A program made the position numbers and the translations under genes. Under the pieces are notes generated by a model. It ran no database searches. It worked only from the letters and a program-made list of their open reading frames with translations, and was not told the DNA's origin. 64,000 nt of DNA from Candidatus Bathyarchaeota archaeon. GTDB lineage: Archaea; Thermoproteota; Bathyarchaeia; 40CM-2-53-6. The stretch covers positions 11,782 through 75,781 of the forward strand of contig CAWAOH010000016.1 of NCBI GenBank assembly GCA_963783645.1, read 5' to 3'. Position 1 is the stretch's first letter. Each line of letters begins with the position of its first letter. This document shows positions 14,264 through 52,063 of this stretch, piece by piece.

Positions 14264-14267
14264 ATGT

Positions 14268-32751: not shown

Positions 32752-34116
32752 TTGCCTATACTTCCAATCGATACTGGGCGTTATGGGAGTCCGGAAATAC
32801 GCAGTGTTTTCGACGAGAGTACCAGATTTCAGCGTATGCTTGATGTTGAAGCTGCACTAGCCTGGGCGAGGGCGGAGGTCGGTGATATACCAAAAGAAGC
32901 AGGCGCCGAAATCTTGAGACATGCATCTCTGCAATACGTAAAGTTGGAACGAATTCTAGAAATCGAGAAGACTACTGATCACGAAGTGATGGCGCTTGTT
33001 GACGCACTAGCTGAAGTCTCTGGAATAGGCGGAGCATACGTACACCTTGGCGCCACCTCCGCAGACATACTTGACACTGCACTAGCACTGCAAATGAAAG
33101 ATGGATTAGCTCTGATATCACAGAAGATGGACAGGCTCGAAGAGGTCATCCTTGACCTTGCAAAACGATACCGTGACACACTGATTATTGGGCGTACTCA
33201 CGCACAGCACGCATTGCCAATGACTCTTGGACTAAAATTCGCAGTATGGTTACGAGAGATTGGCAGGCATATTGAACGCCTCAATGAATGCAAGCAGCGG
33301 GTCCTCGTAGGAAAAATGAGCGGCGCGATTGGTACGATGGCGGGATTCGGCAAGAACGCGATTCAGATACAGAATCTGGTCATGGAGAGGCTCGGCCTTA
33401 ATGCACCTGAGGTGACTAGCCAGATAGTTCAGCGGGATCGTTACGCTGAGCTGGTATGCCTATTTGCAGTGGTCGCCAGCTCTTTGGACAAGTTCGCGAC
33501 TGAAATCCGAAACCTACAGAGACCAGAGATTGATGAGCTAAGTGAACCGTTTCAGACAGGAAAGCAGGTAGGTAGTTCAGCGATGCCGCAAAAACGAAAT
33601 CCGTGGAGAAGCGAGAGTGTCTCGAGTATAGCAAAAATCGAACGTAGCCTAGTTGCTCCAGCTTTAGAAGGAATTGTTACGTGGCATGAAAGGGACCTTT
33701 CCCAATCTGCTTCCGAACGTTTTGTGATCCCAGAGTCATTCATTCTCATGGATCACGTCTTAGGTTCAATTACCCGAATCCTTAGCGGACTTCGAGTAAA
33801 CGAAGATAAAATGCTGAGCAATTTGATGAAATGGAAAGATCCGATGATGACTGAGTCCGTGATGATTGCGCTCGTCAACAAGGGCATGCCTCGACAGGAA
33901 GCTCACAGGCTGCTTCAACAGCTTGTCTTTAGCAGTCAGCAAACTGGGGAGAGCTTAGGTACCGTACTGCTGAAAAACGACGCTGTATCAAAGCTCCTGA
34001 GCCCATCAGAAATCGAATCTTGCTTGGACCCCAAGTCGTACCTAGGTATGTCCGGTAACCTCGTCGATTTGGCAGTGAGTAAAACGAAGGGTGAACGGTT
34101 AGCTCGCGGCCTATAG
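32752..34116 (+). CDS. purB: Adenylosuccinate lyase
   Basis: 454 aa, fumarate-lyase signature GSSAMPQKRNP. Confidence 0.9.
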   Translation: MPILPIDTGRYGSPEIRSVFDESTRFQRMLDVEAALAWARAEVGDIPKEAGAEILRHASLQYVKLERILEIEKTTDHEVMALVDALAEVSGIGGAYVHLGATSADILDTALALQMKDGLALISQKMDRLEEVILDLAKRYRDTLIIGRTHAQHALPMTLGLKFAVWLREIGRHIERLNECKQRVLVGKMSGAIGTMAGFGKNAIQIQNLVMERLGLNAPEVTSQIVQRDRYAELVCLFAVVASSLDKFATEIRNLQRPEIDELSEPFQTGKQVGSSAMPQKRNPWRSESVSSIAKIERSLVAPALEGIVTWHERDLSQSASERFVIPESFILMDHVLGSITRILSGLRVNEDKMLSNLMKWKDPMMTESVMIALVNKGMPRQEAHRLLQQLVFSSQQTGESLGTVLLKNDAVSKLLSPSEIESCLDPKSYLGMSGNLVDLAVSKTKGERLARGL

Positions 34117-36374
34117 TTAACTTGTTTCGTCTTCGTGATAATCTGTTAGCAAACTCTGTTCAGTACCTTCGACAGCTCCTGACTTCAAACTCTCCCATTC
34201 GTCAGCTTTGATTAGTCCTCCAACTTGCTCCTTGATTTTTTTCGCTACGGTGGGGCCGATCAAAGGTACGTTCATGAGGTCTGTTACTGAGGCATGTTTG
34301 AGTTCCTCAATTGTCCTATAACCGGCGTTGAATAGTGCACGGGCGCCCGGCCGACGCTATCAATTTCGACCAGGGGCACTAGTTCCGATTTCACTCCTTT
34401 GGCGCAACGGACTTGGAGCTCTTTCGTAATTTTCATCAGATCCTTGTGGCCGAAGAGTTCAGCTAGCTCGTAGGTTGCATGAAGGAGCCATTTGGAAGTA
34501 TCCACTATCCTGAGAATGTCTCCTGGTTCCACTTTGTGAGCTTCCAATATTCCGTCCTCAGAGGTCTCATTGATCCATTCGTAGAGTACTCGTGCGCATT
34601 TTATCTCGGAAAGGAATTCTTCGTAAGTTATACCGTTTGTCTCTCCATAGAATTCCGGGACTTCGCACATGTATTCGCCTTCATGCTCGCGAGCAAAGAG
34701 ATCGAGCATTTCGTCCTCTCCTCTTCGCGGGTAGAGTCGAGGAGCAATGTCAGGTGTCCTGGAGATTAGGTGCAGGAAGCTCACATCAGTTACATGTTTC
34801 GCTCGTGTGTAGAGGCCGTCACGTAAGATTACAGCTGATACTGGGTCTATGTACAGCTCTGATACCCTTCGTCCGAATCTAGTTGCTTTGAGCTCTTCAC
34901 CATCGAATTCAACCATTTGTTCTCTGCCTAGAAATCGCAGAATATCACCGAGCTTTGATCGAATCATTTTCGGATCGTATTGATATGCGTAGAATGTTTT
35001 CGCAAAGAAATTAATGAGGCCGTCTTCGCTATTCGCGAATCGGGTAGCTATGGTAGCGAGCACGTGCGGGCGAAGGACCTTCTCCGCACCGAGTTTTGAC
35101 CAGATCCGTTCCGGTTCTGCAAGCGCATAATTCTTCAAGAGATAGTCCTGCTCGTCTTCCGTCCTTGCCATGAGGATTGCCTCGCCATATTTGTCGTAAC
35201 GTGGGCGGCCAGCTCGTCCGCAGAATTGCTTGTATTCCAAGACTGAAATAGGGTATCGACCGTATCCGGCCTCGTACCTCTCGTAACTGGTTATGATGAC
35301 TGTCCTCGCTGGCAAATTTACTCCTGCAGCGAGGGTAGGGGTTGCCGATAGAATCTTCAGTCGGCTTGACTTGAACCCCTCCTCAATGATCTTCCTGTGT
35401 CCTCCTGTTAGGCCAGCATGATGGAACGCAGCGCCGTTTAGTGTTTGCTCAGCAAGCGTTTCACTTAGTCGTGTTCTTTCCCCGACCGATAAGATGCGCT
35501 GTGCTATTATTTCGAGTCCTCTGCGGTCGCCTTTGGAGAGGTTCCGTCGAAGCAGTGCTGAGGCTTTCTTCCCCATATCTACTGCGAGTCGTCGTGTCTC
35601 AGCGAATAACAGAACCTGTCCGTCATTGTTAACGACGTCGAGCGCAATATCGAAAATCGGATTTTGTTCACTGCGTGGGATTATTCGAGATGATCCATCC
35701 TTGAACTGTATCTGCCCGTCGTAGTACACACCCTCTCTAAGTGGAACGGGGCGCCACTCCGTCGTCACAGGGACTCCGTTAAGCCATTCCGCGATTTCGG
35801 TTGCGTTCTTGATAGTTGCACTAAGGGCGAGCAGCTGGAGTCTTGGATTGATCTTCAACAAACGAGTAAGGACAACTTCAAGGGTTGGGCCTCTACCTGC
35901 TTCTGTTAGTAAATGAATTTCATCAGCAACAACGACGGCTACGTCGGATATCCAAGGAGGTCTATGCCTTAGCAGCGAGTCAGCTTTCTCATTAGTTGAG
36001 ATGATAATGTCGTAGTTGGCAAGGTAAATGTCGGAACTATCATATTCGCCACTGGTGAGTGCAACTCGAATTTTCTTTCCAGGACTCTTTTCGATCGATG
36101 TGTATTTCGAGAAGTCTTCGAATTTTTCACTCGTGAGTGCTCGGAGTGGTGTCAAATAGAGGGCTTTTCCACCCTTCTCCAGGACTGCCTTCAGGATCAC
36201 GAGTTCAGCGATGAGTGTCTTCCCAGATGCTGTCGGACTGGCCAGAATGATGTTCTTTCCGTCTAATGCTCCTGCAATAACGGCATCTTCTTGCGGTGGG
36301 TATAATGTGTCATATCCAGCTTTCGCTAAGACCGCTTTTATGGAATCAGGTATGGAGAGTTCATCGATGTGCAA
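34117..36374 (-). CDS. hel308: Hel308/Hjm-type Ski2-like DNA helicase; C-terminal HhH domain out of frame as assembled (shift near 34345)
   Basis: SPTASGKT, VVADEIHLL. Track ORF ends at 34284, but ARALFNAGYRTIEELKHASVTDLMNVPLIGPTVAKKIKEQVGG... is readable in another frame down to TAA 34119..34117. Confidence 0.85.
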
Positions 36375-36388
36375 TGATCGGGATTCTT

Positions 36389-38427
36389 CTATACTGCTGT
36401 TCTTTTAACGTGACCAGGTTTGGGTTGGTAGAGCAACCCTTCTTTCAACATTTGCTGTATGAGTGATCTCGCATCAGACTCGGACACTTCGACTTTGGTT
36501 GATACCACCTTTATCAGCTCCGTCTCTTCGACAACATCCACTTGCCTCTCCATTTCTTTGACCGTGCCTAGGATTATTTGCATTCGATCATTCTGGTTCC
36601 TGCTCTTCCCCGTCATTAAGATGTCGATGTCCATCTTGCCTGTTTCAGTGTCTATGCCCACTTCTTGCATCGATATGGTGAAGAGCCGTATGATCGCCTG
36701 AGTGTCCTCAACGAGTATTCTGTCGCGGAGAAAGGCTCTAGCTCGAGCTTCTGAGAGTCTGACGAGCGCTTCGAGTTGACGAGGCGTAATTGGAACAGGT
36801 GATTCAGTGGAGCCGGACATAGAACGCATTCTCAGGTAATATTCCCGGATGGAGGCAGCGGCTTCGTCCGTCAAGATGGGTTCCACTCTCTTCGCGTAGG
36901 AAATGTACTTTCGAAGCATGTCCGACGACAGCGGTGTTTCAACTGGGGCTCGCCTTGTGTGGTGAATTGTGAGGATATGATCGGACATTTTGCCATCTGC
37001 GTCAGGATCAGGAGTATCCTTCATTATGAAATAGAGATCAAAACGTGACAATAGGGTGACGGGCAGGTTGATGTTGTCTGCGATTGTCCTGTACGGATTG
37101 TATCTTCCGAATTGAGGGTTAGCTGCGGCAAGAACGGCCGTTCTTGCGTTGAGCGTTGCTACAATTCCTCCTTTTGCGATGCTTACAGTATGCTGTTCTA
37201 ATGCTTCGTGGATGGCAACTCGATCTTCGGGTCGCATTTTGTCGATTTCATCAATTGCAGCCACCCCTTTGTCGGCTAGAACCAACGCGCCTGCTTCAAG
37301 AATCATGCCCCCATTCTTTTGCGTATCACTGCAGCAGTGAGGCCTGCAGCTGTGGTGCCTCTTCCGCTCGTGTAAAGTCCTCGCGGAGCTATTCTAGAGA
37401 CGTACTGAAGGAGTTGACTTTTTGCGACTCCCGGGTCTCCAACTAACAGGACGTTAATTTCACCACGAATGTTGACGCCATCTACTAGATGCTTCGGAAC
37501 TCCTCCGAAGATCAGGTAGAGCAACGCTTCCTTGATGTCTCCGTACCCATAGATCGAGGGAGCCAGCGATGCTATGAGTTTTCGATGAATTAAAGGATCG
37601 ATTGCAAGCTCACGAATGTGACGTTCATCGTCGGCCGTTATTTCTACAACATCTACTTCCTTTCCGACTACTTCTACATAATTAGCGTCCAGGAGCAAGT
37701 CGAAGGTGCGAAGTCTTGCTTTTTGCCCGACGAATTCCTGTTGCGCTTTAGCGACACCTGTCACGGCAACACGGTCGCCTGGTCTTGCCACGTCGACTAG
37801 GTCCTCGAGGAGTTTGATGTCCAACACTCTGGGTAATTGGCCTGGAGGTAGATCTTCTGGACGTTCTTGGATACGAATCTCTTGAGAATTCACGAATGCT
37901 GATTGTTTCTCCAAGAATTCAAAGAGCTTGGATCTGCAGTGCGCGCAAATTCCAGGGCCGCGCATCAATATTCCACCTTGTTCTACGTATGTTAGCGCAT
38001 TGCATTTGCGACACTGAAACGCCGCTTTGAGGAGGAGTGGTTTCACTGTGGTCGATCGAACGATAATGCCATCAATCAGGAGGAGTTTGCCAATATTCTC
38101 GGAGCCGATCTTACGGAATAGATGCTTCTCGGGAAGTTTTCTGAGCCTAATGCGAAGAGACTTGATCGACTCCGCATACTCTGGATCCTCTATTTTGAGT
38201 TGAGCCCATGCGCTTCTGTCTAGATATCCAAGATACTCGTCTGGTTTCGCGAGAATCAAACGCGCAAGCTCAGGATCGACGGCGATCAAGTCTTCAAAGT
38301 CAACGATAATTGAGCGTGACCCAGTAAGAGCAGCATTACCAAGACGTTTACGATACTTGTATTCGCCTTCTACGGCGTAAGACCTCAGGAAGTCCTGGAA
38401 CCGCTCTTCAGGACTCTGTGACGTCAT
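36389..38427 (-). CDS. mcm: MCM replicative helicase, split by a single -1 shift at a C5/G5 run (37308..37312)
   Basis: Zn finger CRKCN...CAHC, GDPGVAKSQLL, IDEIDKM. The two ORFs meet at ...TAAVIRKRMG / MILEAGALVLADKG. Confidence 0.9.
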
Positions 38428-38430
38428 TCT

Positions 38431-38986
38431 TTAGACTCCTGAAGCAGTGTAGACTTTCCACTCCTCGATGGTTTTGTTGAGAACGGCGTAGAGCGATTTC
38501 TCTTCCAGTGTTAATCCTTGCATTATTTCCTCAGAGGCTGCGGGTGACGCAGCGAGTGCAACAATCTTCCTTACCCGACAGTTCACGATATCCCTAACGA
38601 GGGTCTCAGTTCTTTCCAGCTCGCGTAATTTCACTTGATCCTGTTTGCTCTGTTTTCTAAGCTCATTGAGATGCCGCCGCAATAGGCAGTAGAAATTAGC
38701 TTGCAGCGACGGAATTCGCCTGGAGTCCAGGAATTGTCTCTCGCCAATGAATCTTTGAGAGCGAGTTGAAAGTGAGGACATCTTCCTCTCGGAATCTCGC
38801 ATATCCGAGTTGAACGAGCTCCCTTGCGGTCCAGTATGGTACCTCAGCCTCCTGGCCGATCCTGACGGACGTGAGTTTAGGCATTCTTGGCATCTCAGGC
38901 AGCTCTCTAATCAGGACTATTCTAATCGGAGAGTTCTCGAAGTCGAAGTCAATGTCTCCTACTGAAATCAACGCCGCTTCCGCCAA
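38431..38986 (-). CDS. GINS subunit (Gins23-like domain order), frameshifted as assembled (+1 near 38745)
   Basis: ORFs 38696..38986 and 38431..38802 overlap. Joined reading is ...LSKIHWRE|RQFLDSRRIPSLQANFYCLLRRHL. It sits immediately upstream of mcm on the same strand. Confidence 0.55.
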
Positions 38987-39224
38987 CTCCTCACCGCTTG
39001 CGTCTTCATGATTTAAGTCCTATGTCTAGTGTTACATTCTGTTTAGTCTAATTTTCCTGTGGAGAGTTGTTTGTAAGGGGAGAGAGATCACTGAAAGTGT
39101 TGTCGCTTTTTTCGTGTTCAAGTTCCACCAGAAACTCATGCCAAGGCTTTTGAAGGACGCATGCAGACTCTGCCTGCACTGGAAATCAGATTGAGGAAAA
39201 ATCATCTTGAGCCAAAACGGTCTC

Positions 39225-40187
39225 ATGTGGATAGAGAAGTATCGACCTAGAACGCTTGATGCCGTAGTTAATCAGCGGGAGAGCGTTGAGAGCATCAAAG
39301 CTCTCCTGAAAACTCCCGCAACGATGCCCCACCTCTTGTTCTCAGGCCCGCCTGGAACGGGGAAGAGCACTATGGCTCTTTGTATCGCTCGCCAGCTGAT
39401 GGGAGACAACTTCAGGCGACTCGTTCTGGAATTGAACGCTTCCGATGAACGTGGTATTGGGGTTGTACGGGAGAGAATCAAAGGTTTTTCACAGGTAATT
39501 CAGACTGCGCCTTCAGGAGTTCAGTATGGGCTTGTCATACTGGATGAATGTGATGAGATGACTAGAGATGCTCAGACTGCCTTACGTAGGATTATGGAGA
39601 CATCATCCAGAACATGCAGGTTCATCCTCATCTGTAATTACCAGAGTGGGATCATTGAACCGATTCAAAGCCGATGCTCCATATTCCGATTCAAGCAACT
39701 CGAAAAGAAAGATGCAATCGTTTACCTTTCAATGATCTGCAAAGCAGAGAAGGTTAGCGCAGATGAGGATGCGATAGAGCGCATCTTTGACCTTTCTGAG
39801 GGAGACCTAAGAAGGGCAATCAATTACCTCCAAGTAGCAACCACGAGCTCAAAGGCAGGGAAGCTTGATCTTACTCAACTTAACAAGATGGCTCCAAACG
39901 ACGAGGGCGATAGCGTCCGTGCTATGCTGCTAACTGCCATTCAAGGAAACTTTCTGAAAGCTCGTGACCTAATGTACGAGCTAATGGGAAAGCACGGGAT
40001 GAGTGGGAGAGAGATAATCCGTATCGCAAACCGCGAAGTAGTTCAGATAGTTGAGTTAGAAGCAAAGAAGCAAGTTGAAGCAGTCCGGTTACTCGGCGAA
40101 TATGACTTCAGACTCTCACAAGGGGCTAACGAGGATATTCAACTAAGCGCAATGCTCGCACAGATCAGTCTACTAGGAAGCAAGTAG
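39225..40187 (+). CDS. rfcS: Replication factor C small subunit
   Basis: MWIEKYRP, GPPGTGKST, DECDEM, QSRCSIFRF (SRC motif), GDLRRAINYLQ. Confidence 0.9.
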   Translation: MWIEKYRPRTLDAVVNQRESVESIKALLKTPATMPHLLFSGPPGTGKSTMALCIARQLMGDNFRRLVLELNASDERGIGVVRERIKGFSQVIQTAPSGVQYGLVILDECDEMTRDAQTALRRIMETSSRTCRFILICNYQSGIIEPIQSRCSIFRFKQLEKKDAIVYLSMICKAEKVSADEDAIERIFDLSEGDLRRAINYLQVATTSSKAGKLDLTQLNKMAPNDEGDSVRAMLLTAIQGNFLKARDLMYELMGKHGMSGREIIRIANREVVQIVELEAKKQVEAVRLLGEYDFRLSQGANEDIQLSAMLAQISLLGSK

Positions 40188-40192
40188 CAAAC

Positions 40193-41981
40193 TTGCAGGC
40201 TAAGTCGTGGGCGGAGAAATACCGGCCACAGAGTTGCGCAGATCTTGTCGGGAACGAAGAAGCCGTTTCTAAGTTTGGATCTTGGCTTGGATCGTGGACG
40301 TCAAGACGAGGCAAGACCAAGAAAGCGTGTCTCCTAGTAGGACCGCCCGGAGTAGGGAAGACGTCTCTCGCAAGAGCAGCTGCTAACGATTTCCGTTTCC
40401 GAGTGGTTGAGCTGAACGCAAGCGATGTAAGGACTGAGAAGGCCATAGAGAAGGCGCTTGTACCAGCAAGCGCGCTCACTCTCTGACTCATACTCAGAGG
40501 CCAGTCATGGCAACCTAATATTGCTAGACGAAGTTGACGGTGTTTTCGGTAGGGAAGATAGAGGCGGAATAGGCGCCATATTATCCGCAGTAGAGGTCTC
40601 GCCTGTCCCCATAATTCTCACCGCCAACAATGTCGAGGACGAACGATTTGATGATTTGAGGAAAGCATGCTCAGTAATCGAGCTTTTCGAGATTCGGCCA
40701 AGATTGCTCCTCATGCTCGTTCAGAGAATCATAGCGGAAGAACGTGTCAATGTTAGTCCTAGAGTAATCGAAGCGATCGTCCGGAGGTCACAGTGGAGAC
40801 CTACGGTCCACTATAAATGACGCCCAGGCTGCTGCAGCCGGAGTTTTCGATGTGTCAGGCATCACGAACACAAAAACTAGATGAGGGGTTGACTCTGAAA
40901 GGACTATTTGAGTCACATGAATTCGGTAAAGCCAGAAGAGCGTTGAACGATACGGAGATTCCGCTCTACAAAGATGAGTTGCTGCTTCTACTGCATGACC
41001 TCCTTCCGTACGTGTACACTTCGCGCCTGAAATTGGCCCTAGCTTACGACAGCCTGTCGCACGCAGACATTGCATATGGAAGAATCGGGGCTAGCAGATC
41101 CAGGGGCATGGAGCCACCACCCTTTAACATGCCACGACGAGACTCAGTTCCACAATGGAACCTGCTCCCTGTTGCCTTGAACGAGTTGGCCTCAGTAGGA
41201 GTGCAAGAAACAGACAACAGTGTGGAGAACGCTTTGAGTTCTTCAACGCAGTCTATCGCAAAAGACTGCCGAACGTTACCAGTACCGTCTATGGACAATT
41301 AATCGAGTATGCGGGAAGATTGCAAGGACTTGCCATGTCTCGAAGAGAACTGCACTGCGTCATGTATTTCCGTTTCTCATTGGTCTATTTCGCAGCTGAC
41401 GAGACTTCGGGAATAGAGACCGCGACTGCAATGGAGCTGGAAGAGAGAGATATAGAGTTCCTGAAAGGAGAAGCCAAGTCGGCTGTTACGCTAACGGGTT
41501 CCGCAGAGATGCTGGATCCAGCGGACTTCAAGCTGCCATATATGGGAAAAGACAAGTTCATTCAACTCATGCGTGTCGGAATAAAATACAACTCAAGCGC
41601 TCGACATTTTCTGTGCGTCGGATGGATAATCTTGATTCAGTCGAGGAGAGCCTCTCGCAGATAGTCGGGAAACCCGTGAAGTTCGTACGCCCAGAACTAA
41701 TATCCGAACTAAAGCATGTCAGCGAGAACATAACGATGGTGTGCTATGTTGACGGTAAGGAGATATCCTGCGATACGTGTGACTTTGTTGAATCATGTCC
41801 GACCCGTTTCTTACAGGATCTGAAGTATTGCATCTGTAAAGAGACGCTATCTGATGAGCAAGCGTACAGAGAGTATATAACGAAAAACCAGGAATTCTTG
41901 GAGGAAATGATACCGGCCAAAAAGGTAGCTGTCAAGAAGCCGAAAGCTGGAAAGAGAAGAAAGACTAGTGTTCGCGACTAA
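40193..41981 (+). pseudogene. rfcL: Replication factor C large subunit, at least 5 frame interruptions
   Basis: Pieces 40193..40486 (WAEKYRP, GPPGVGKTS), 40458..40820 (LILLDEVDG), an unlisted frame with GGDLRSTINDAQAAA (about 40795..40890), then 40817..41302, 41155..41664 and 41613..41981. Confidence 0.8.
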
Positions 41982-42499
41982 CCTTCAACATGTGGCCAAT
42001 CTCAGGAAGAATCAGCTGTTCCATTGCTGTCTCAACCCCATCAGGTGAACCTGGAAGACAGAAGATTAGCTTTCCCTTTGCTGATCCAGCAAGTGCGCGG
42101 CTCAGCATGGCTGCTGAGCCGATCTTTTCGAAGCTAATCTTCCTGAAGAGTTCTCCGAATCCAGGAATCTCCTTCTGAAGGAAAGGTGAGACGCTCTCGA
42201 TAGTCACGTCTCTTGGCGATAGTCCTGTTCCACCCGTAATGATGAGTGCGTCGATTATCGGAGAGGATATGGTTTTCCTCACCAGTCTCCGAATCATTGG
42301 TTTCGAGTCTGAGATGAGTTGTCGTACCTGCCACTCGGTGACCCACCTGCAACACGAAGCTCTCAATAATGTCGCCAGACTTGTCGTCAGGTTTTTCTCC
42401 AGCCTTCTGCTGTGCGAATTTTGAGGTGCTGCAGGTTACGATAGAAATTCCAAGAGACTTAGGTGACATGTGCTTGTGAAGTTCAGCGACTTTGCTCAT
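41965..42499 (-). CDS. moaB: MoaB/MogA-like molybdopterin biosynthesis protein, frameshifted as assembled (near 42330)
   Basis: ORFs 42134..42499 and 41965..42366 overlap. C-terminal part has ALIITGGTGLSPRDVT and LPGSP. Confidence 0.7.
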
Positions 42500-42508
42500 T
42501 CATTTCCC

Positions 42509-42944
42509 TTAATCTTCTTCTCGACTCTTAGCGTACGTGATCGCAGTTGAGGGATATTGACCGTTAGTGTCTTTCTCATACTGTTTAGTCATATCCCAAA
42601 TCGTGAGAAGATAAGCTGAGGCAGCCGTTAGTGCCTCCATCTCGACTCCAGTCTTTGCTTCACCTTTAACATAGGATTCAACGCTGATAGTATCACGACC
42701 AATCTTATGTTCAGTTCGAACAGTTGTAATGGGTATTGAATGGCAGAATGGAAGAATTCGTGGCGTATTCTTTGCAGCCATTATTGCAGCAACTTCAGCA
42801 GCTGCTATAGCGTCTCCTTTCTCAATTGTTCCAGACTCTAAGGCGTGCGATTGTGCTTGGTTTGAGTTTGATTTCGCCAACTGCAACAGCCTCTCTCGTG
42901 ACAGTCTTCTTCGCTGAAATATCAACCATTGAGAAACGGCGCAT
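42509..42944 (-). CDS. moaC: Cyclic pyranopterin monophosphate synthase MoaC, frameshifted as assembled (+1 near 42850)
   Basis: MRRFSMVDISAKKTVTREAVAVGEIKLKPSTIA in one frame, then SGTIEKGDAIAAAEVAAIMAAKNTPRILPFCHSIP in the track ORF frame. Confidence 0.75.
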
Positions 42945-44253
42945 GAATCATCGAGTAGTAAGAGGAGTATGGGAGATAGCTATTATGCTCCCTGACGATT
43001 GATGTACTAATTTCTGTGGAGTTTCTTGCGGTTGACGTTAGTGCTTTTTCTAACTGTTCACGCATAGTAGAAGCAGGTATACTCTGCAACCCAAGCAGAG
43101 TCGTCTTCCCTCGCACTCCTTCACCGGATTTGGAGGCAGCTATTATTCCAATTGCGCCTAAACCGCGAGCATACTTCCAAATCTGAGTATGTTTTCGTGG
43201 TTCATCATCATACTCTTCGCAAACTGCTTTGTACTCGCGTTCTACGGCGCCTATGTTGCATATGCTTCTTGAGATTCTTCGAGAACTCGAGCTAACGCAA
43301 GTAGCATGTATTTTTCATGAGAGGATAGGGCGTTGATGTACTCGCCTCTCAATGTTGGATATACGCTTCCGGCGGCTTTTCGAACATGATCTGCGGAAAC
43401 ACGTTTCGAAGCTTCAGAATCAGCATATTTGCCTGCACGCCAGAGAAGTTCAATCGAGTATCGTGCATCGCCACTCTGGCCGCCGATGTCGGCGACGAGT
43501 TGAAGTGCTTCATCAGATAATGTGTTCTCTTTGAAAGCTAATTCAACTCGATCATTAAGAATTGTAATCAATTGAGAGAGTCGTACTTGTCGAGTTTGAC
43601 GATGTTCCGTTGGAGAGTATCGGTGGTGCTCTTGTCAAGCTGCTGAAGATATTCTTGTTCGCGGAGGATGCAAATGAGTGAGAGGCGTATCGGTTTGCCG
43701 ACGCGTTCTTCCTGGATGCGTGTAAGGTTGTAAATGGGATTAGGCCCTTCTGTTCTGATGAGATGTTCCAGCTCGTCTAGTGCAAGTATCAGGTGCATGT
43801 TCTTGTCGTCAAGTATGTCCATTAACGTTTGCAGAAGTTCTTCCGGTGCAAAACCACGTTTTGGGAATTCGGGTTCGAACTGTGTCAGAACCCGTTTTAT
43901 GATCATGAAGAGGCTGCCTTTCGCTTCGCGACAGTTTACGTGGATATATTGAAGGTTGATTTTGCGATTCTTAGCCGCCCTAACAAGGTCTGCTCCGAAG
44001 CGTTGGGATAGAACGGTCTTTCCTGTTCCCACATCTCCTGTGATGAGTACACGTTGACTAGTCGAGAATGGGCTCTCGATAGAGAATCGAAAGAGTTGGG
44101 TGAGAAAACGCATCTGTGCGTCGCGATGCAGCAGTCGTCGGCGGCATATATTCCAAGGAGAGGGGTGTCTCGTCTTTGAATACGGTGGGTCCGCGCTAAC
44201 GTTTCGTTTACGATGTCTGATGACAATTGAACGAGAGCCCCTACTCTCGACAA
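42922..44253 (-). pseudogene. cdc6: Orc1/Cdc6 initiator, at least 4 frame interruptions
   Basis: VFKDETPLSLEYMPP (one frame), RLLHRDAQ...ITGDVGTGKT...ALDELEHL (43568..44113), the lid domain (43251..43571), and a winged-helix part GVRGKTTLLGLQSIP in 42922..43250, all in different frames. Confidence 0.8.
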
Positions 44254-44438
44254 GCTTAGATTACCTCAATCTTATGTGCTTTTGTTGCGTGATCAGATAA
44301 AAGCCAGAGAGCTAGGTGAAAATGATGGTGTTCCCACGTTGAGCTCGAAGACTCGAATCACGTGGGTTGATCCTATTCTATTGATTCTTGCAATCCTAGC
44401 GGCTGAAGTTAGCTATGGCATAGCGGGAATGTGAAAAA

Positions 44439-45470
44439 TCAGCTTCCATGTGTTTCAATGACTCGATATAGCTCATCACGTTCGGATGCTGTGATCTCAG
44501 TTGTCGACCCATCTGCTCTGACTAGTTTTCTTCCTTTCTTGCGATCTGTGAATTTGCCTATTATCTCAGCTTCAATTCCTTTTTGTCTGAGACGACGTAC
44601 AATGTGATTGGCTTTTCGATTGTCTGCTGCAATGAGTAGGCAGCCCGAACTCATTAGTCGCAAAGGATCCACATGAAGCATGGCGCAAATTCGCCTAGTC
44701 TCATCGCGTATAGCAATTTTCGTTTCGTCAACCAAGAAGCCTACCTTGGACGCTTCTGCAATTTCCCATATCCCTTGCAGAACTCCTCCTTCTGTAGGGT
44801 CGTGCATGGCGCTAACTCCGCCGACTCCAACTGCAACCATGGCATCTCCAACGATGCTGATTGAATGTCGCAGACCCTTCGCTCGGGCAAGGACTTTATT
44901 ATCAACCTTCAATCTGCGAGAGAAATCCATTGCGAGTAAGGCTGTGCCCTCAATACCAGCAGATTTGGTCATAATCAAGTTGTGATTCGGACGTGCACCA
45001 CTCGAAGTGATAAACTTCTTTTCGTCGACGACACCAACCATGTAGCCAACAACAATTGGCTTCTTAAGACCGGGAGTGACTTCGGTGTGCCCTCCAACTA
45101 CGGCCACGCGGAGTTCCTTTGCAGCAGCGTCGACCTGTCGCATTATCAATTCGACGGTGCGAGCGTTCGATTTCTCAGGTAGAAGCAAATCGCAAAGGAA
45201 CCATCGTGGCCTTGCTCCCCTACACGCAATGTCGTTTGCGTTGATGTGAACCGAGAGCCAGCCAATATCAGAAGCTGTACCAGTAACCGGGTCCGTCGTA
45301 AACACAAGAACCTTACCGCGAAACGAGACTAATGCAGCGTCTTCACCAATAGAGGATCCGAGAATAACGGAAGGATCATTACGCCCTCTGTATCGAAGGA
45401 CTGTACGAACCAATATGTCCGTGGGAATCTTGCCGGTCCTAAACGGGCGCATAGGTATCAGCTCACACAT
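44439..45470 (-). CDS. AIR-synthase-related protein (PurM/HypE/ThiL superfamily)
   Basis: 343 aa. GEDAALV, the N-terminal dimerisation block and a C-terminal PurM-like domain. Confidence 0.65.
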   Translation of the reverse strand: MCELIPMRPFRTGKIPTDILVRTVLRYRGRNDPSVILGSSIGEDAALVSFRGKVLVFTTDPVTGTASDIGWLSVHINANDIACRGARPRWFLCDLLLPEKSNARTVELIMRQVDAAAKELRVAVVGGHTEVTPGLKKPIVVGYMVGVVDEKKFITSSGARPNHNLIMTKSAGIEGTALLAMDFSRRLKVDNKVLARAKGLRHSISIVGDAMVAVGVGGVSAMHDPTEGGVLQGIWEIAEASKVGFLVDETKIAIRDETRRICAMLHVDPLRLMSSGCLLIAADNRKANHIVRRLRQKGIEAEIIGKFTDRKKGRKLVRADGSTTEITASERDELYRVIETHGS

Positions 45471-45525
45471 GACATATCATGCTTTAAATTACGTCGTTAC
45501 CTCATGAACCGCCAGTGAAACCGAA

Positions 45526-45876
45526 ATGATTCGATCGATTATTAACGTGGCCATCGTAGTATCCGATGCTCAAAAATCCTCCGAATGGTACCGAGACAAA
45601 TTGGGTTTAGAGATCCGATCGAACGAAGGCCACTGGATAACAGTGGCACCAAAGGGCTCCGATGTAGTCATACACTTGTGTGCACCATACGAGGGAAACC
45701 CACTCGAACCTGGCAACACGGGGATAGCATTTCGCGTCAACGATCTCGACAGCACCTACAATGAATTTAGCAAGAAAGGAGTAGAATTCACGGTCAAACC
45801 GAAAAAAGAAGAGTGGGGAAGCTACGCCATGTTCAAGGATCCAGATGGAAACGTATTCTGGCTCATGCCAGAATAG
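45526..45876 (+). CDS. VOC (glyoxalase/bleomycin-resistance) family protein
   Basis: 116 aa. VSDAQKSSEWYRDKLGL and FKDPDGNVFWL blocks. Confidence 0.8.
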   Translation: MIRSIINVAIVVSDAQKSSEWYRDKLGLEIRSNEGHWITVAPKGSDVVIHLCAPYEGNPLEPGNTGIAFRVNDLDSTYNEFSKKGVEFTVKPKKEEWGSYAMFKDPDGNVFWLMPE

Positions 45877-46056
45877 AGCTCATACTCAGTCCGGAGATCA
45901 AAGCGGCTCCTATCCTCCTAGCTTTTCTTAGGCATGTTCTAGGAAAGTGCGGGCTCGATACTCAAGATCTATTTCATTCAGAAATCAATTGGGCCAGACT
46001 CGTCATCGCCCGCCATTGCAATTCATTAGAGACTTGCTAATTTGCATATCTAGTGC

Positions 46057-47040
46057 GTGAAGAAAGTGCAGTCGATTAGTGTAATTCCCATCGGCTTTGA
46101 AAGTCTCGGCGTGAGATCAATGTGTACATTCGTCGAGACGCCCGATGTAAGAATGCTAATCGACGCGGGAGTTGCATTGGGACCACGGTTTGGGAAAAAA
46201 CCACATCCCAGAGAATATCAAGCACGCACGTTATGCCGCTCCAAGATCAGAGAGTACGCGTTAAAATCGCAAGTTATCTTTGTATCTCATTACCACAACG
46301 ATCATCACACGCCCAACTATACCGAAACGGTGTGGTTGGGAAGCAGCGCAGAAGAAGCAGAACAAATCTACAGAGACAAAACTGTGATTATGAAAAGCTT
46401 TCGAGACTCAATAAACTTCTCCCAGCGCAAGCGCGGTTGGATGTTCCAAAGGTTCCTCAAAGGAATCGGCAGCAAATGCGCAGTTGGAGACGGAACCAAG
46501 TTCGAATTTGGAAACACGATAGTGAAAGTGTCTAAACCAGTTCCGCATGGCGAAAGAGCGTCAGGACTTGGCTGGGTAATAATGACAACGATTGAGTCGG
46601 AACAAGAGAAGATCATGCACGCATCTGATGTTCAAGGGCCAATGTCAAAACAGACTACGAATACAATTCTGAAGGAGAAACCGGATCTACTCGTTCTTGG
46701 TGGACCACCATTCTACCTCGACAAAGTGAAAGTGGACACGAAAGCAATTCAGGAAGGCATCGCTAACGCTAGCAGGATCGCTCGTAGCGTGCCGACCGTG
46801 ATCTTCGAACACCACGCTCTCCGCTCAGAGAACTGGCGTGAGGAAATTCGGCCAATATGTGATGCTGGTAGAGGAGTCGGTCATACAGTCATTACGGCAG
46901 CAGAATATCTCGGGTTGAAGCCTAACGCGCTCGAGTCGATGCGACAACAACTATATGCAGACGATCCACCACCTGAATCGTTTCTCAAATGGTGCGCACT
47001 AGAGCGGGACAAGCAGAAGCACATCCCTCCCCCCATCTAA
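46057..47040 (+). CDS. MBL-fold metallo-hydrolase (archaeal UPF0282-like)
   Basis: 327 aa. VSHYHNDHH metal motif. Confidence 0.6.
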   Translation: MKKVQSISVIPIGFESLGVRSMCTFVETPDVRMLIDAGVALGPRFGKKPHPREYQARTLCRSKIREYALKSQVIFVSHYHNDHHTPNYTETVWLGSSAEEAEQIYRDKTVIMKSFRDSINFSQRKRGWMFQRFLKGIGSKCAVGDGTKFEFGNTIVKVSKPVPHGERASGLGWVIMTTIESEQEKIMHASDVQGPMSKQTTNTILKEKPDLLVLGGPPFYLDKVKVDTKAIQEGIANASRIARSVPTVIFEHHALRSENWREEIRPICDAGRGVGHTVITAAEYLGLKPNALESMRQQLYADDPPPESFLKWCALERDKQKHIPPPI

Positions 47041-47141
47041 GATTCATTGTTTCCTCTGGCATTATATCGTAAATTTAGTAAATACTCAGACGTTATTTCA
47101 CTTCTCCCAGACTAACCTACTGAGCAAGTCACGGAAGAGCG

Positions 47142-49055
47142 TTGTTCAGTTTGATTTCAAATTTGAAAGGGAGCAAGGTGGAGTATCCTCCCAAACTAAC
47201 AGCCATGCTGAAACACGCTCTCGAAGATCCAGAAGGGTTCTGGGGAGAAATTGCAGGAGAACTCCACTGGTTCAAACAATGGGACAAGGTTCTCGAATGG
47301 AATCCTCCAGACTTCACATGGTTCAAAGGGGGAGTAACCAATCTCGCCTACAATTGCCTAAACATGAACATCAAAAAGGGCAGAGGCAGTCGTGCTGCTA
47401 TCATATGGGAAAGTGGAGAGGGCTTACCGACTCGCACCATAACATACGATCAACTGTATCGAGATGTCGGAAAGTTTGCGAATGCCTTGAAGGCACTGGG
47501 TGTCGGTCGAGGCGACAGAGTCACCATCTACATGCCCATGGTGCCTGAAGCGGCGGTCGCAATGTTAGCGACGACCAGAATAGGGGCAATACACTCGGTG
47601 ATCTTCGGAGGCTTTGGATTTGGAGCGATAGCCGACCGCATCGAAGATGCTGACTCAAAAATCGTAGTGACCGCGGACGTCGCTTACCGACGCGGAGGCG
47701 AGGTCAAACTCAAAGAGATTGTTGACGAAGCTCTGATAGCTTCAGGTAAAAAGATCGAGAAAGTAATAGTTCTGAAACGAGGAAACAAGAACCTTCCAAT
47801 GATGGCGGACAGAGACATTTCATGGGAAGACGCAGTATCGCACGGCAAAAGCGCCGAAGTTGAGAAGATGCGTGCAGATGAGTTGGCGTTTATACTTCAC
47901 ACTTCAGGAACAACGGCGAAACCGAAAGGTACCGTGCAGCCACACGGAAGTTATCAAGTCTACATCTACGCGATGGGCAAATGGGTCTATGACATGCAAC
48001 CTGATGATGTCTGGTGGTCTACTTCAGACATTGGCTGGATCGTTGGACACAGCTACGTTGTGTATGCACCGCTCCTCTTCGGTTGCACCACAATCATGTA
48101 CGAAGGATTACCTGACTATCCAACGCCAGACATTTGGTGGCGTATAATCGAAAAGAACCGTGTCACCAAACTGTGGATCTCACCCACCGGTGCACGGAGC
48201 CTAATGAAATATGGCGACGAATACCCAAAGAAGTATGACCGAAGCTCAGTGAAGCTGGTAGCTTGCGCAGGCGAGGTGCTCAACCCACCTGCTTGGGAAT
48301 GGCTGCAAAAAACTGTGTTCGAGGACAGAATCCCCGTCATTGACCACATGTGGCAGACCGAGACGAGTGGTCCGCTGGTAGGAAACCCGTACGGAATCTC
48401 ACTGCTTCCGATCAAACCTGGATCGGCGGCCATTCCGCTTCCAGGAGTGGATGCTTTGATTGTTGATGAGCAAGGAAATCCTGTGAACACAGGAGTCGAA
48501 GGCACTTTCGTAGTGAGAAGGCCATTTCCCGGCCTAACGCCAAGCCTCTGGCGTGATCATCAAAGGTACGTCGAGAATTATTGGAACCGGATCCCTGGCG
48601 TATACACAACCGGCGACGCGGCAATGATGGATGGTGATGGATATCTCTGGTTTTTGGGAAGAGTTGACGAGGTCATAAAGATCTCCGCTCATAGAATTGG
48701 TACCATCGAAATTGAGAGCGCATTGCTTCGACACCCAAGCATCGCGGAAACTGCGGTGATTGGTCGAGCTGACCAACTTCGAGGAGAAACGGCATGTGCA
48801 TTCGTCGTCCTGAAATCCGGGTCAGCGCCAAATGAGATTCTGAAGGACGATTTGAGGCAACTCGTCCGAAAGACTCTGGGACCAATAGTGATCGTCAGTG
48901 ACATTTACTTTGTTAACAAGCTACCAAAAACTCGAAGCGGAAAGATAATGCGACGTGTGATCAAGTCCCTGGTTGCAGGGAAACCGTTGGGCGACTATTC
49001 AACCATAGAGGACGAAACCTCAATCGACGAACTTAGGAAAGCCGTATCAGGGTAA
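47142..49055 (+). CDS. acs: Acetyl-CoA synthetase (AMP-forming)
   Basis: 637 aa. HTSGTTAKPKG, YTTGDAAMMDGDGYLWFLGRVDEVIK, PKTRSGKIMRR. Confidence 0.9.
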   Translation: MFSLISNLKGSKVEYPPKLTAMLKHALEDPEGFWGEIAGELHWFKQWDKVLEWNPPDFTWFKGGVTNLAYNCLNMNIKKGRGSRAAIIWESGEGLPTRTITYDQLYRDVGKFANALKALGVGRGDRVTIYMPMVPEAAVAMLATTRIGAIHSVIFGGFGFGAIADRIEDADSKIVVTADVAYRRGGEVKLKEIVDEALIASGKKIEKVIVLKRGNKNLPMMADRDISWEDAVSHGKSAEVEKMRADELAFILHTSGTTAKPKGTVQPHGSYQVYIYAMGKWVYDMQPDDVWWSTSDIGWIVGHSYVVYAPLLFGCTTIMYEGLPDYPTPDIWWRIIEKNRVTKLWISPTGARSLMKYGDEYPKKYDRSSVKLVACAGEVLNPPAWEWLQKTVFEDRIPVIDHMWQTETSGPLVGNPYGISLLPIKPGSAAIPLPGVDALIVDEQGNPVNTGVEGTFVVRRPFPGLTPSLWRDHQRYVENYWNRIPGVYTTGDAAMMDGDGYLWFLGRVDEVIKISAHRIGTIEIESALLRHPSIAETAVIGRADQLRGETACAFVVLKSGSAPNEILKDDLRQLVRKTLGPIVIVSDIYFVNKLPKTRSGKIMRRVIKSLVAGKPLGDYSTIEDETSIDELRKAVSG

Positions 49056-49069
49056 TTGGAGATGAAGGT

Positions 49070-49849
49070 TTGCCACTGGTTCTAAGCGAAATTGACGGGC
49101 CCCTCGGCACAATAACTCTGAATCACCCCGAGAAGCGCAACTGTCTGAGTGCGCCTCTCATCACTGAGCTTTGCAGTACGCTGGATAGGTTCGAGGAAAC
49201 CGGTATCAGAGTAGTCATACTGCGTGCAAAGCCAGGCGTCAAAGTATGGTCGTCCGGATATGATGTTAACGAACTCAGTCGACCCGGGCGTGATCCTCTT
49301 CCCTACGAAGCACCCTTTGAGCACCTATTACGACGCGTCCAGAGCTACCCCGATCCCGTCATTGCGATGATTGAAGGCAGTGTTTGGGGTGGTGCATGTG
49401 ACTTGGCGTATACATGCGACATTCTGATCGGATGCGAAACTGCCTCTTTTGCTCTCACACCTGCAAAACTCGGAATTCCATACACAACGTCTGGAATGAT
49501 ACATTTCATCAACATGGTTGGACTCAACAAAGCCAAGGAAATGTTCTTCACAGCAGCTCCGATTGCAGCTTCTGAAGCTTTAGCCGTCGGCATCTTGAAT
49601 CATCTAGTACCAGTCACAGAACTTGAAAACTATGCTCATGAAATAGCCAATAGGATCCTTCAAAATGCTCCTCTCGCAGTGAGAGGGTTCAAAGAACAAT
49701 TCCGCTTGCTATCCAAGGGGCATTCTATAGATGCTGAAACCGCTGAAAAGATCCAATCTCGGCGCCGCCTAGTATACGACAGCGAAGACTACATAGAAGG
49801 TGTACGGGCATTTCAGGAGAAACGCCCGCCCAGATTCAAAGGCAAATGA
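49070..49849 (+). CDS. Enoyl-CoA hydratase/isomerase (crotonase) family protein
   Basis: 259 aa. ITLNHPEKRN and GSVWGGACDLAYTCD oxyanion-hole region. Confidence 0.85.
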   Translation: MPLVLSEIDGPLGTITLNHPEKRNCLSAPLITELCSTLDRFEETGIRVVILRAKPGVKVWSSGYDVNELSRPGRDPLPYEAPFEHLLRRVQSYPDPVIAMIEGSVWGGACDLAYTCDILIGCETASFALTPAKLGIPYTTSGMIHFINMVGLNKAKEMFFTAAPIAASEALAVGILNHLVPVTELENYAHEIANRILQNAPLAVRGFKEQFRLLSKGHSIDAETAEKIQSRRRLVYDSEDYIEGVRAFQEKRPPRFKGK

Positions 49850-49911
49850 ATCTGCAGTCCATCAACCTGATAAAATAACAGGGAAAAGTGGGGATAGGGA
49901 CTTACCACAGG

Positions 49912-50079
49912 TTAAGCACCCGCGAGCTTTGTCGCTTGACGGAACTTCTTACCGCATTGCGGACATGAGTAATGTTTGATGTGCAGCGCTGGACCTCGAC
50001 CGTCCTTCGGGTGCATGTCCCATTCCTTAGCTGGTCCTATCACTTCGCCTCCGCATTTCATGCATTTTACCAAAAACAT
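49912..50079 (-). CDS. Small zinc-ribbon protein (55 aa, below the track cutoff)
   Basis: My own translation: MFLVKCMKCGGEVIGPAKEWDMHPKDGRGPALHIKHYSCPQCGKKFRQATKLAGA. Confidence 0.45.
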   Translation of the reverse strand: MFLVKCMKCGGEVIGPAKEWDMHPKDGRGPALHIKHYSCPQCGKKFRQATKLAGA

Positions 50080-50218
50080 TCACCTCGATTTGGCCACAGC
50101 CAGGCGGAAGACATGGAGGGAAACAGCAAAGCTTGGCGGGCTATTGACACAATTAGGTGGGGGTTACTCCATGTCCAAACCGCTTGTGCTGTCATGATGC
50201 GTCCATACTGCTTTAATG

Positions 50219-50254
50219 GTATATTAGTGTTTCATTTACGGTACACTAATATAC
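50219..50254. promoter_or_regulatory. Perfect 12-bp inverted repeat GTATATTAGTGT-N12-ACACTAATATAC in a divergent intergenic region
   Basis: Read directly. Both arms contain TATA-like TAATATA. It lies 62 nt upstream of 50316 (+) and 140 nt from 50079 (-). Confidence 0.4.
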
Positions 50255-50315
50255 TCCCAACCTTACTGTACAGCCATTAGGTTATCACAAAGCATTGTCA
50301 GGAGGTTGAGAAATA

Positions 50316-50483
50316 ATGAATGGAGAATCAAGACGAAGCTTCGCAGTGGTGCTTGCTTCTTTCGCAATTGGAGCGACTGTTGCAGCGATTCTGGGCAACT
50401 CGAAGACTCGCGAAAAGCTAGCTGAGCATGGGAAGAAGGCTGCTGAACGGAGCAAGAAACTTCTGCACCGTGCTGAGGCGTGA
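50316..50483 (+). CDS. YtxH-like small membrane-anchored protein (55 aa)
   Basis: AGGAGG 8 nt upstream. MNGESRRSFAVVLASFAIGATVAAILGNSKTREKLAEHGKKAAERSKKLLHRAEA. The 75-aa minus-strand ORF here is probably spurious. Confidence 0.5.
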   Translation: MNGESRRSFAVVLASFAIGATVAAILGNSKTREKLAEHGKKAAERSKKLLHRAEA

Positions 50484-50588
50484 ACAGATGAGGCGGTCTT
50501 AGGCCCGCCCATACCCTTCTAATTTTCCGTTCCCGAGTTACCGAATAATTTTAAATTGAGTGCATGCGTGGTTTACTGGGGCGCGTGA

Positions 50589-51176
50589 GTGGGGCCTCCC
50601 ACCCGTTGCGCCAGAGAAACCCCGGTGTCGGGAGGTAAACAGTTGAAGAGTAAGAACGCAATCTACATGACCCTAACCGCCGTATTCGCGGCGCTCTACG
50701 CAGTGGGTGTAGTTTTCCTAGCGCCGATCAGTTTTCAAGTGTTTCAAGTAAGGATAGCAGACGCGCTCCTTCCATTGGCGATGCTCTTCGGGTGGCCAGC
50801 AATCGTAGGCTTGAGTCTAGGCGCATTCGTCGCTAACTTCTTCGGTGGTCTCGGCCCTGTTGATATTATCGGAGGAGCCATAGCGAATTTCATTGCTACA
50901 TTAGTCGCCTGGAAGATTGGTCACGGGAGGAGACGCACGAGTGTATTGGCAGGTATCGTGGCGGAAATTGCCATAATTACCTTCATTGTTGGCCCGTACC
51001 TGAGTTACTTGATCGGCATGCCACTGACCATCGGATTACTCGGTGTCTTCTTGGGAAGTGTAGTTGCGATTGGTGTTCTAGGTAGCATCCTCTTCTTTGC
51101 GCTCTCAAGCTCGCGAGTGGCTTCTATGTTTAGATCTTCGAATGTCTTCAAGCAGCCGTCGTCATCTGAAGACTAA
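50589..51176 (+). CDS. queT: QueT-family (queuosine-precursor) transporter; true start probably TTG 50643 or ATG 50667
   Basis: FQVRIADALLPLAMLFGWPAIVGLSLGAFVANFFGGLGPVDIIGGAIANF matches the QueT pattern. The first ~18 codons of the track ORF overlap a GC-rich structured leader. Confidence 0.6.
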   Translation: MGPPTRCARETPVSGGKQLKSKNAIYMTLTAVFAALYAVGVVFLAPISFQVFQVRIADALLPLAMLFGWPAIVGLSLGAFVANFFGGLGPVDIIGGAIANFIATLVAWKIGHGRRRTSVLAGIVAEIAIITFIVGPYLSYLIGMPLTIGLLGVFLGSVVAIGVLGSILFFALSSSRVASMFRSSNVFKQPSSSED

Positions 51177-51205
51177 CAATCCATCATACTCTGCAGGTGA
51201 GTTGG

Positions 51206-51726
51206 ATGACCGGAAGAATCGAATTAGCGTTGGGTGATATAACACTACAGAAAGTTGATGCTATTGTCAACGCCGCAACAGTACCCTCCTGGGCGGAGGG
51301 GGAGTAGATGGAGCTATTCATCGCGCAGCTGGTCCTCAGTTGCTCGAAGAATGTAGGCAATTGGGAGGATGTCCAACAGGTGAGGCAAGGATTACTAAAG
51401 GATACAGAATATCTGCGAAGTACGTGATTCATACGGTTGGGCCAATTTGGAGAGGGGGCGATCGAGGAGAGGACGATCAGCTGCGTAATTGTTATCGGAA
51501 CACTATGAGGTTGGCAGCAGAGAACAGAGTTAAGACGATCGCGTTTCCGTCGATTAGCACCGGAGCCTATGGTTTTCCCATAAATCGTGCAACAAAGATC
51601 GCTGTCTGGACAGTAACCGAGTGCCTTGATATGCTGAAGACATTTGAGCGAGTGATTTTCATATGCTTTTCAAAAAACGATTACGCCGTATACCAGCGTG
51701 AGTTAGTAGGGCTGAGCGAATCTTGA
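51206..51726 (+). CDS. Macro-domain protein (ADP-ribose / O-acetyl-ADP-ribose hydrolase type), -1 frameshift at 51277
   Basis: [24 protein letters not shown], then one missing A. The downstream frame reads [20 protein letters not shown]... and continues into track ORF 51340..51726. Confidence 0.8.
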
Positions 51727-51739
51727 TCGAGATTCGGGT

Positions 51740-51946
51740 TTATGCGTCTGATGGCATAGGCATTTCCAAGTTCAGTCTCAGAATCTTCTTGAAAGTGTTA
51801 GTGATCTGCACATCTTGGTAAGAGTTCATCCATTCGTTTTGCAGATCTCTCCCAAGTCTAAGAGTTAACTCAAAGTCAGGCAGGTAATCCCCAAGCATCA
51901 GCAAAGCATCAGTGATCCCACGTGGGGTTCTCTCCGTCGGTTTCAT
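51740..51946 (-). CDS. Hypothetical small protein (68 aa)
   Basis: ORF only. Confidence 0.3.
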   Translation of the reverse strand: MKPTERTPRGITDALLMLGDYLPDFELTLRLGRDLQNEWMNSYQDVQITNTFKKILRLNLEMPMPSDA

Positions 51947-52063
51947 CTTCTTCTCTTCTGTCTGTTGATGGATGCGGTAGCTTCGTGGATCGTGATGAAT
52001 GTGACGGTTAATTGCCTAGAAGCAAGTAGAAAAGAGGGAATAAGCCAGCTATTGTGACTTACG

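Follow-up and report, generated by a model that had tools for sequence, protein, structure and literature searches.

A block of core replication genes on one contig of a Bathyarchaeia draft genome reads as broken in frame, which raises the question of whether the breaks belong to the DNA of the organism or to the assembly that represents it. The source is a metagenome-assembled draft whose 20 contigs total 1.59 Mb and whose completeness is estimated at 76%. The window, that is, the whole stretch of DNA analysed, is 64,000 nucleotides long, and the locus at 34.1–44.3 kb of it corresponds to C16:45,900–56,100 of the source assembly. An earlier note on this DNA had described hel308, mcm, gins, rfcL and cdc6 as frame-disrupted and the rfcS lying among them as intact. 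This was confirmed by the open reading frames and by Pfam, which identified Sld5, Cdc6_lid, Rep_fac_C, Helicase_dom4_arc and the MCM P-loop domain at the locus, and the catalytic motifs are indeed preserved across the shifts.

State of the genes as assembled

The comparison relied on four independent, near-identical conspecific assemblies (98.5–99.7% nucleotide identity), which represent other strains of the species and differ from the window by 0.3–1.5%. These were L050 (JGI Ga0209777, 99.2%), L060 (JGI Ga0187877, 99.7%), L131 (ENA ERZ27247850) and L132 (NCBI GCA_049522295.1), the last two being both 98.5% identical across window positions 33001–52397. Three congeneric species at ~80% nucleotide identity served as more distant comparators, with open reading frames listed for one of them (G002).

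Table 1. Features of the locus, in window coordinates, with their state in the source assembly
Feature	Position	Strand	State
hel308 (Ski2-type helicase)	34117..36374	-	696 aa, with a tail of 52 aa in a different frame
mcm	36389..38427	-	split into 374 + 305 aa
gins (Sld5-type)	38431..38986	-	pieces of 96 + 123 aa
rfcS	39207..40187	+	intact, 326 aa, zero private indels
rfcL	40193..41981	+	five pieces of 97/120/161/169/122 aa
moaB (MoCF_biosynth)	41965..42499	-	broken by insertion at 42324
moaC	42509..42944	-	broken by insertions at 42532 and 42837
orc1/cdc6	43009..44253	-	at least 4 pieces
divergent patch	41500..44400		19–91 private substitutions per kb vs 0–6 in flanks

Against the near-identical contigs, hel308 has lost 4 nt at 34345 (GGGCG[CGTC]CGCGG to GGGCGCCCGG), and this loss throws the C-terminal HhH part (34117–34275) out of frame. 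The 1-nt loss in mcm at 37320 (TTTTCGCG to TTTTGCG) falls within the P-loop domain, which Pfam finds broken at about profile positions 105/110. The gins gene has gained a single base at each of two sites, 38729 (TCC[A]GG) and 38455 (GAC[T]TTCC). Six events were mapped in rfcL. Five are insertions, at 40484, 40792, 40857, 41250 and 41394, each placed within a C|G step, and the sixth is the loss of 1 nt at 41603. A further five lie in cdc6 (losses at 43030, 43255 and 43575; insertions at 44139 and 44195), and the moaC/moaB junction has lost 1 nt at 42502. The rfcS gene differs from that of L131 by 7 substitutions, 6 of which are synonymous, and its intactness amid broken neighbours is within chance. 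It was also observed that moaB and moaC, between rfcL and cdc6, are broken too, which had been overlooked before.

The same genes in relatives

All eight genes are single full-length open reading frames in L131 and L132 (Cdc6 415, MoaC 142, MoaB 177 and RFC-L 594 aa). MCM (679 aa), GINS (186 aa, within a conspecific range of 181–186 aa), RFC-S (326 aa) and Hel308 (753 aa) are intact in L050 and L060, where RFC-L is open up to the contig end. When the intact MCM of L050 was looked up as an exact protein, it matched its own L050 contig only. Relative to the conspecifics, the window contains 23 private indels between 34345 and 44195, 18 of them in genes; these comprise 14 insertions of one base, one insertion of two bases, seven losses of one base and one loss of four bases. 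Every one is absent from all four conspecific assemblies, and none was found in the three congeneric species, which share their gene order with the window. In G002, only hel308 is split, at a different place than in the window, and the other seven genes are intact. Because four independent conspecific assemblies carry every gene intact, the frameshifts are very probably consensus errors of one draft assembly and not features of the organism's DNA.

The five intergenic events occur within just 315 bp, and some of those in the diverged moaC-cdc6 spacer may be genuine differences. An argument from an equal density of indels in intergenic DNA, which would have marked them as unselected, was dropped since three of the five lie in this strongly diverged spacer.

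Extent in the genome and relation to strain divergence

Frame changes were found in 29 of 216 sampled orthologue-like genes (13%), amounting to 34 changes in 191 kb on many contigs, and a second cluster of breaks lies at 12.4–18.2 kb of the window. Private indels recur on contigs C7 and C15 of the source assembly when these are compared with independent near-identical contigs. A patch at 8–12.2 kb of C15 alone has 28 of them, and the genes hit there probably include some of the mevalonate pathway. A reference-free scan, which took the share of stop-to-stop open reading frames of at least 150 codons per 5-kb window, left the region unflagged and was judged insensitive.

The density of private indels followed that of private substitutions (Spearman 0.70, p = 1e-6, both counted per kb), and rose from 0.33 indels per kb in the low-divergence bin to 1.6 in the middle and 4.6 in the high one. 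Indel density peaks in the divergent patch of Table 1. Since the substitutions in this patch are chiefly synonymous, it is a divergent allele that came in via recombination or via a chimeric assembly path.

Selection, copy number and the possibility of real frameshifts

The earlier note had proposed a search for second copies of mcm, rfcL and cdc6 and an estimate of dN/dS over the fragments. The latter indicated strong purifying selection, with values of 0.054 for cdc6 (dS 0.36), 0.084 for moaC (dS 0.47) and 0.063 for mcm, as low as those of intact neighbours (0.048 for rfcS). After frame correction there were zero in-frame stops across the corrected genes, and the substitutions look like true divergence under such selection. 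The organism's own genome has one MCM only, no second RFC-L or GINS was found in this ~76% complete genome, and the one Orc1/Cdc6 paralogue, on C7, is distant (28% identity). Ordinary pseudogenes, which had been thought of as a combination of intact paralogues elsewhere and relaxed selection here, were rejected on these grounds. If the genes were truly broken, the organism would be without a replicative helicase or clamp loader. The earlier reading that the shifts are either very recent or artefactual agrees well with the intact conspecific assemblies, the low dN/dS and the absence of in-frame stops.

The first of these two options, in which true and very recent frameshifts mark young pseudogenes of a decaying or non-viable lineage (e.g. 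a mutator or relic DNA), draws on the presence of the indels in the deposited sequence and on the origin of the comparison contigs from other strains or samples. We consider it very unlikely, as about 13% of the sampled genes are hit, including the single-copy essential MCM, RFC-L, GINS and Cdc6, and the 28 private indels of the C15 patch probably add mevalonate-pathway genes to these. Furthermore, the indels follow the strain-divergence patches, and natural frameshift mutations prefer homopolymers, which are under-represented at these sites. The low-divergence stretch at 33–41.5 kb, where some 10 private indels accompany 50 substitutions, seems too indel-rich for decay, by expectation and not by a tested rate. 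Pseudogene-rich degrading genomes, such as those of Mycobacterium leprae and recent endosymbionts, resemble the source assembly in having many frameshifted genes. Unlike them, the source assembly combines a dN/dS of 0.05–0.08 over a dS of 0.36–0.47 with zero nonsense codons, its essential single-copy replication genes are hit, and conspecifics with 99% identity are intact.

Sequence context of the indels

The context of single-base insertions was analysed in a set of 37, consisting of 14 in the window and 23 on C7 and C15. Only 9 of the 37 duplicate a neighbouring base, vs a null of 44%, and in the window only 1 of 14 does so. In 20 of the 37, the inserted base and a neighbouring one are transition partners (null 29%). 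The indel context is non-random and unlike slippage. Plain 454 or nanopore homopolymer error was rejected, as homopolymer-type insertions are under-represented. Per-site BLAST showed that the inserted base equals the allele of other lineages at the adjoining position at 38729, 41394, 44139, 42837, 40792 and 40857, and that the bases deleted at 43255 and 43030 lie at polymorphic positions. Because the inserted bases often match adjoining-position alleles and are rarely homopolymer extensions, they suggest a consensus that was poorly polished or collapsed from mixed strains.

Half of the window insertions (7 of 14, p = 7e-6) fall inside CpG, and several deletions, those at 37320, 41603 and 51276, take away one base of a CpG. 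These features could fit another kind of artefact, in which native-DNA nanopore data are consistently miscalled at a modified motif such as methylated CpG. This origin is very doubtful, given that only 1 of 23 insertions on C7 and C15 lies inside a CpG, unlike in the window, and that a motif-driven error would not predict the link with strain divergence. Nanopore consensus errors are biased to deletions and homopolymers, which the excess of insertions and the scarcity of homopolymer errors misfit. Hypermutability of CpG as the whole cause of the bias was rejected as well, the approximately twofold enrichment of strain SNPs at CpG being too small to account for 7 of 14.

It is barely conceivable that the DNA is correct and that expression is rescued by programmed ribosomal frameshifting, transcriptional slippage or RNA editing, for all that the catalytic motifs are intact and protein homology resumes in the new frame after each shift, much as it does past a defined point in programmed +1/-1 frameshifting (prfB, dnaX and the widespread +1 frameshifting of Euplotes). 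Unlike in those systems, the 23 sites (15 insertions, 8 deletions) have neither a heptameric slippery motif nor a context in common and are nearly without homopolymers, corrections of both +1 and -1 are needed, up to six per gene, similar indels occur in intergenic DNA, and no site is conserved in relatives, with conspecifics and congeners in plain frame at every one of them. No such recoding system is known in Archaea. The inconsistent shift directions and the lack of a shared slippery motif had already been taken in the earlier note to speak against programmed frameshifting, and they bear this out. Equally hard to credit is that the indels are real and full-length MCM, RFC-L, GINS and Cdc6 are still made through a novel correction at the RNA or translation level; such a correction, if true, would act outside homopolymers and in many cases within a CpG.

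Discussion

The evidence thus favours consensus error, and a course of events can be proposed for it. The contigs would derive either from noisy reads, probably long ones, or from co-occurring strains that were collapsed into one consensus. Where the strains differ, such a consensus may have kept both alleles, giving a 1-nt insertion, or neither, giving a 1-nt deletion; the step in which both alleles are kept is suggested by a handful of sites, counted without a formal null. The rfcS gene may have been spared by chance or through a locally better consensus. Within this reading of the breaks as artefacts, we lean modestly towards mixed-strain collapse, with plain low-coverage, unpolished long-read error as a tentative second candidate, and the two can act together.

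INDEL errors, along with apparent frameshifts, are known to arise close to allelic variants in long-read assemblies with collapsed alleles (PMC8445201). The errors in the collapsed PacBio assembly of T. brucei (PMC8445201) share several features with the window: single-base indels are private to one assembly, conserved genes are split into adjacent open reading frames of different frames, and the errors are enriched where co-assembled alleles differ, and accurate assemblies of the organism carry the genes whole. The window differs in its scarcity of homopolymer errors, which are typical of nanopore consensus, and in the CpG bias of its insertions, for which the roughly twofold excess of SNPs at CpG accounts only in part. 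For gene-fragmenting indel errors of this type, proovframe and Kastor are frameshift-correction tools.

The finding matters as data quality. The source assembly seems to stand for its species in the searched set of 199,900 representative genomes; about 1 gene in 8 is frame-broken in it, which probably depresses its completeness estimate too. Where a finding in this assembly depends on genes that are split, truncated, "fused" or "tandem", it should first be checked against conspecific contigs; suitable ones are GCA_049522295.1, ERZ27247850 and the contigs used here from JGI metagenomes of peat and soil. The frameshifts carry no biological weight, and the organism's own replication genes are almost certainly normal.

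Frame-broken genes in the window and in the rest of the assembly

The assembly under study is of 1.59 Mb in 20 contigs, and the window corresponds to C16:11782–75781. Gene fragmentation in the window was assessed by ORF listing and three-frame translation, and the genes were named by Pfam. The five replication genes between 34117 and 44253 (hel308, mcm, gins, rfcL and cdc6) were each spread across two to five frames and the rfcS lying among them was a single ORF, both as an earlier note made from the sequence had claimed. The moaB and moaC genes within this block, which that note did not list, are likewise broken. In the Macro-domain gene, a single G is missing at 51276 (CCGC[G]AAC in L131 and L132), which truncates the gene from 173 aa in conspecific contigs to a 128-aa ORF (51340–51726).

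When ORFs from 400 kb of a relative in the genus (G003) were searched by tblastn against the whole assembly, frame changes were found in 29 of 216 orthologue-like genes (13%), amounting to 34 changes in 191 kb over many contigs. The window has a second cluster of frame-broken genes at 12452–18227, where four single ORFs of G003 (284, 287, 437 and 365 aa) match with one or two frame changes each; the ORF pair 17144–17728 and 17589–18254 represents a single 365-aa gene interrupted by a frameshift. Contigs C7 and C15 also carry private single-base indels, that is, indels absent from further independent near-identical contigs. The densest error patch seen, at 8.0–12.2 kb of C15, holds 28 private indels and 58–130 private substitutions per kb. 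Judged by the gene order of a conspecific contig (L138), mevalonate-pathway genes (MVD-like, GHMP kinase, UbiD and AcnX) probably lie in this patch, to which the indels were assigned as a whole.

Genes and contigs compared (window positions unless a contig is named)
Feature	Position	Strand	Description
hel308	34117–36374	minus	frame-split
mcm	36389–38427	minus	frame-split; the Pfam match to the P-loop domain of MCM breaks at profile position ~105/110
gins	38431–38986	minus	frame-split
rfcS	39207–40187	plus	whole, 326 aa
rfcL	40193–41981	plus	frame-split
orc1/cdc6	43009–44253	minus	frame-split
L050	35124–41499		JGI contig Ga0209777_10021421, 99.17% identity
L060	32438–37180		JGI contig Ga0187877_1013858, 99.7% identity
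L131	33001–52397		ENA ERZ27247850 k141_2430256, 98.5% identity
L132	33001–52397		NCBI GCA_049522295.1 JBEKNZ010000026.1, 98.5% identity
Distant Orc1/Cdc6 paralogue	G000 (own assembly) C7:96352–97452		single frame
Densest error patch	G000 C15:8000–12300

The same genes in relatives and conspecifics

The gene order is common to three other species of the genus (~80% nucleotide identity; MCM amino-acid identity 93–94%), in which the genes are full-length except for hel308 of G002, and alignment with other species of the genus marked ~27 single-base indels as private to the window. More decisive were the contigs of four independent same-species assemblies, which had single ORFs for Hel308 (753 aa), MCM (679), GINS (181–186), RFC-S (320–326), RFC-L (594), MoaB (177), MoaC (142) and Cdc6 (415).

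The hel308 break in G002 (entry L017 3170–5431) is at a different place from that of the window. MCM was in 2–3 pieces in G012, G016 and G018, also assemblies of the genus, although the assemblies of G016 and G018 consist of only three and five contigs, and gene-fragmenting errors seem common among assemblies of this group. The MCM open frames of 1062–1228 aa in G007, G010 and G025, against ~680–690 aa elsewhere, suggest that the MCM genes of some lineages of the order contain inteins.

Private indels follow strain divergence

Comparison with L131 and L132 gave 23 private indels at 34345–44195 (14 single-base insertions, one 2-base insertion, 7 single-base losses and one 4-base loss) and the one further at 51276. 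The seven broken genes hold 18 of the 23 and rfcS none; those in the diverged intergenic moaC–cdc6 spacer may reflect true differences between strains. With events falling locally about once every 290 bp (38455–44195), the probability of an event-free 981-bp gene is ~0.03, and that of such a gap anywhere among some 20 intervals is ~0.2, so the intactness of rfcS needs no special explanation.

Private substitutions against the same contigs were 1–6 per kb at 33–41 kb, then 19, 71, 91 and 16 in successive kb of 41–45 kb, and 0–2 per kb at 45–53 kb. Private indels correlated with private substitutions (Spearman 0.70, p = 1e-6, 38 one-kb bins), rising from 0.33 per kb in bins with ≤3 substitutions per kb to 1.6 at 4–20 and 4.6 above 20. 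The patch at 41500–44400 diverges by 7–9% from the conspecific contigs, mostly at synonymous positions, and both its flanks are ~99.8% identical. The two alternatives are that recombination brought in a divergent allele of rfcL-3'/moaB/moaC/cdc6, or that the assembly followed a chimeric path into a second population living alongside.

The substitutions appear to be real divergence and do not come from noise. After frame correction, dN/dS was 0.063 for mcm, 0.048 for rfcS, 0.054 for cdc6 (dS 0.36) and 0.084 for moaC (dS 0.47), and no frame-corrected gene had an in-frame stop. Thus, strong purifying selection has acted on these genes over essentially all of their divergence, and this, together with up to six frameshifts per gene, is at odds with pseudogene decay.

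Origin of the frame breaks

Taken at the level of sequence, the frame breaks are very probably an artefact of assembly and no real feature of the organism. The earlier note had offered very recent or artefactual shifts, and the second option is supported by the intact genes of independent conspecific assemblies, the genome-wide frame breaks and the purifying selection.

At positions that vary among the co-assembled strains, the consensus may have retained both alleles or dropped both, which we infer from few sites and with no formal null. Among 37 single-base insertions, only 9 repeated a neighbouring base (random expectation 44%) and in 20 the inserted base was the transition partner of a neighbour (expectation 29%). 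At several sites the inserted base matches the adjacent-position allele of other lineages: at 38729 TCC-GG versus TC-AGG in other lineages, the window reading TCCAGG, and at 41394 CGC-GCT versus CG-AGCT, the window reading CGCAGCT. The pattern recurs at 44139 (T/C) and 42837 (C/T), 40792 and 40857 fit too, and deleted bases lie at polymorphic positions at 43255 (C/T) and 43030 (A/G). INDEL errors and apparent frameshifts beside allelic variants have been reported for collapsed long-read assemblies (PMC8445201).

The main alternative is plain low-coverage long-read error in stretches from a rarer strain. Half of the single-base insertions in the window (7/14) fell inside CpG (CpG frequency 6%, p = 7e-6) and only 1 of 23 on C7 and C15 did so; this bias is accounted for only in part. 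Under either sub-mechanism the frame breaks have a technical cause.

Genuine pseudogenes of recent origin are an unlikely explanation: the breaks affect one in eight genes, including the only MCM, RFC-L and GINS of the assembly, and the indels follow assembly patches. No second MCM, RFC-L or GINS was found in the assembly (76% estimated completeness), and of the intact paralogues that the earlier note had considered, the sole extra homologue in it was the Orc1/Cdc6 on C7, with 28% identity to the window cdc6. Nor was the relaxed selection expected of ordinary pseudogenes seen. Recoding of the frame-broken genes is also unlikely, since it would require both shift directions with no shared motif, as had already been argued against programmed frameshifting, and with no site conserved in any relative, and similar indels lie in intergenic DNA. 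The practical value of these findings is caution over the use of the assembly under study.
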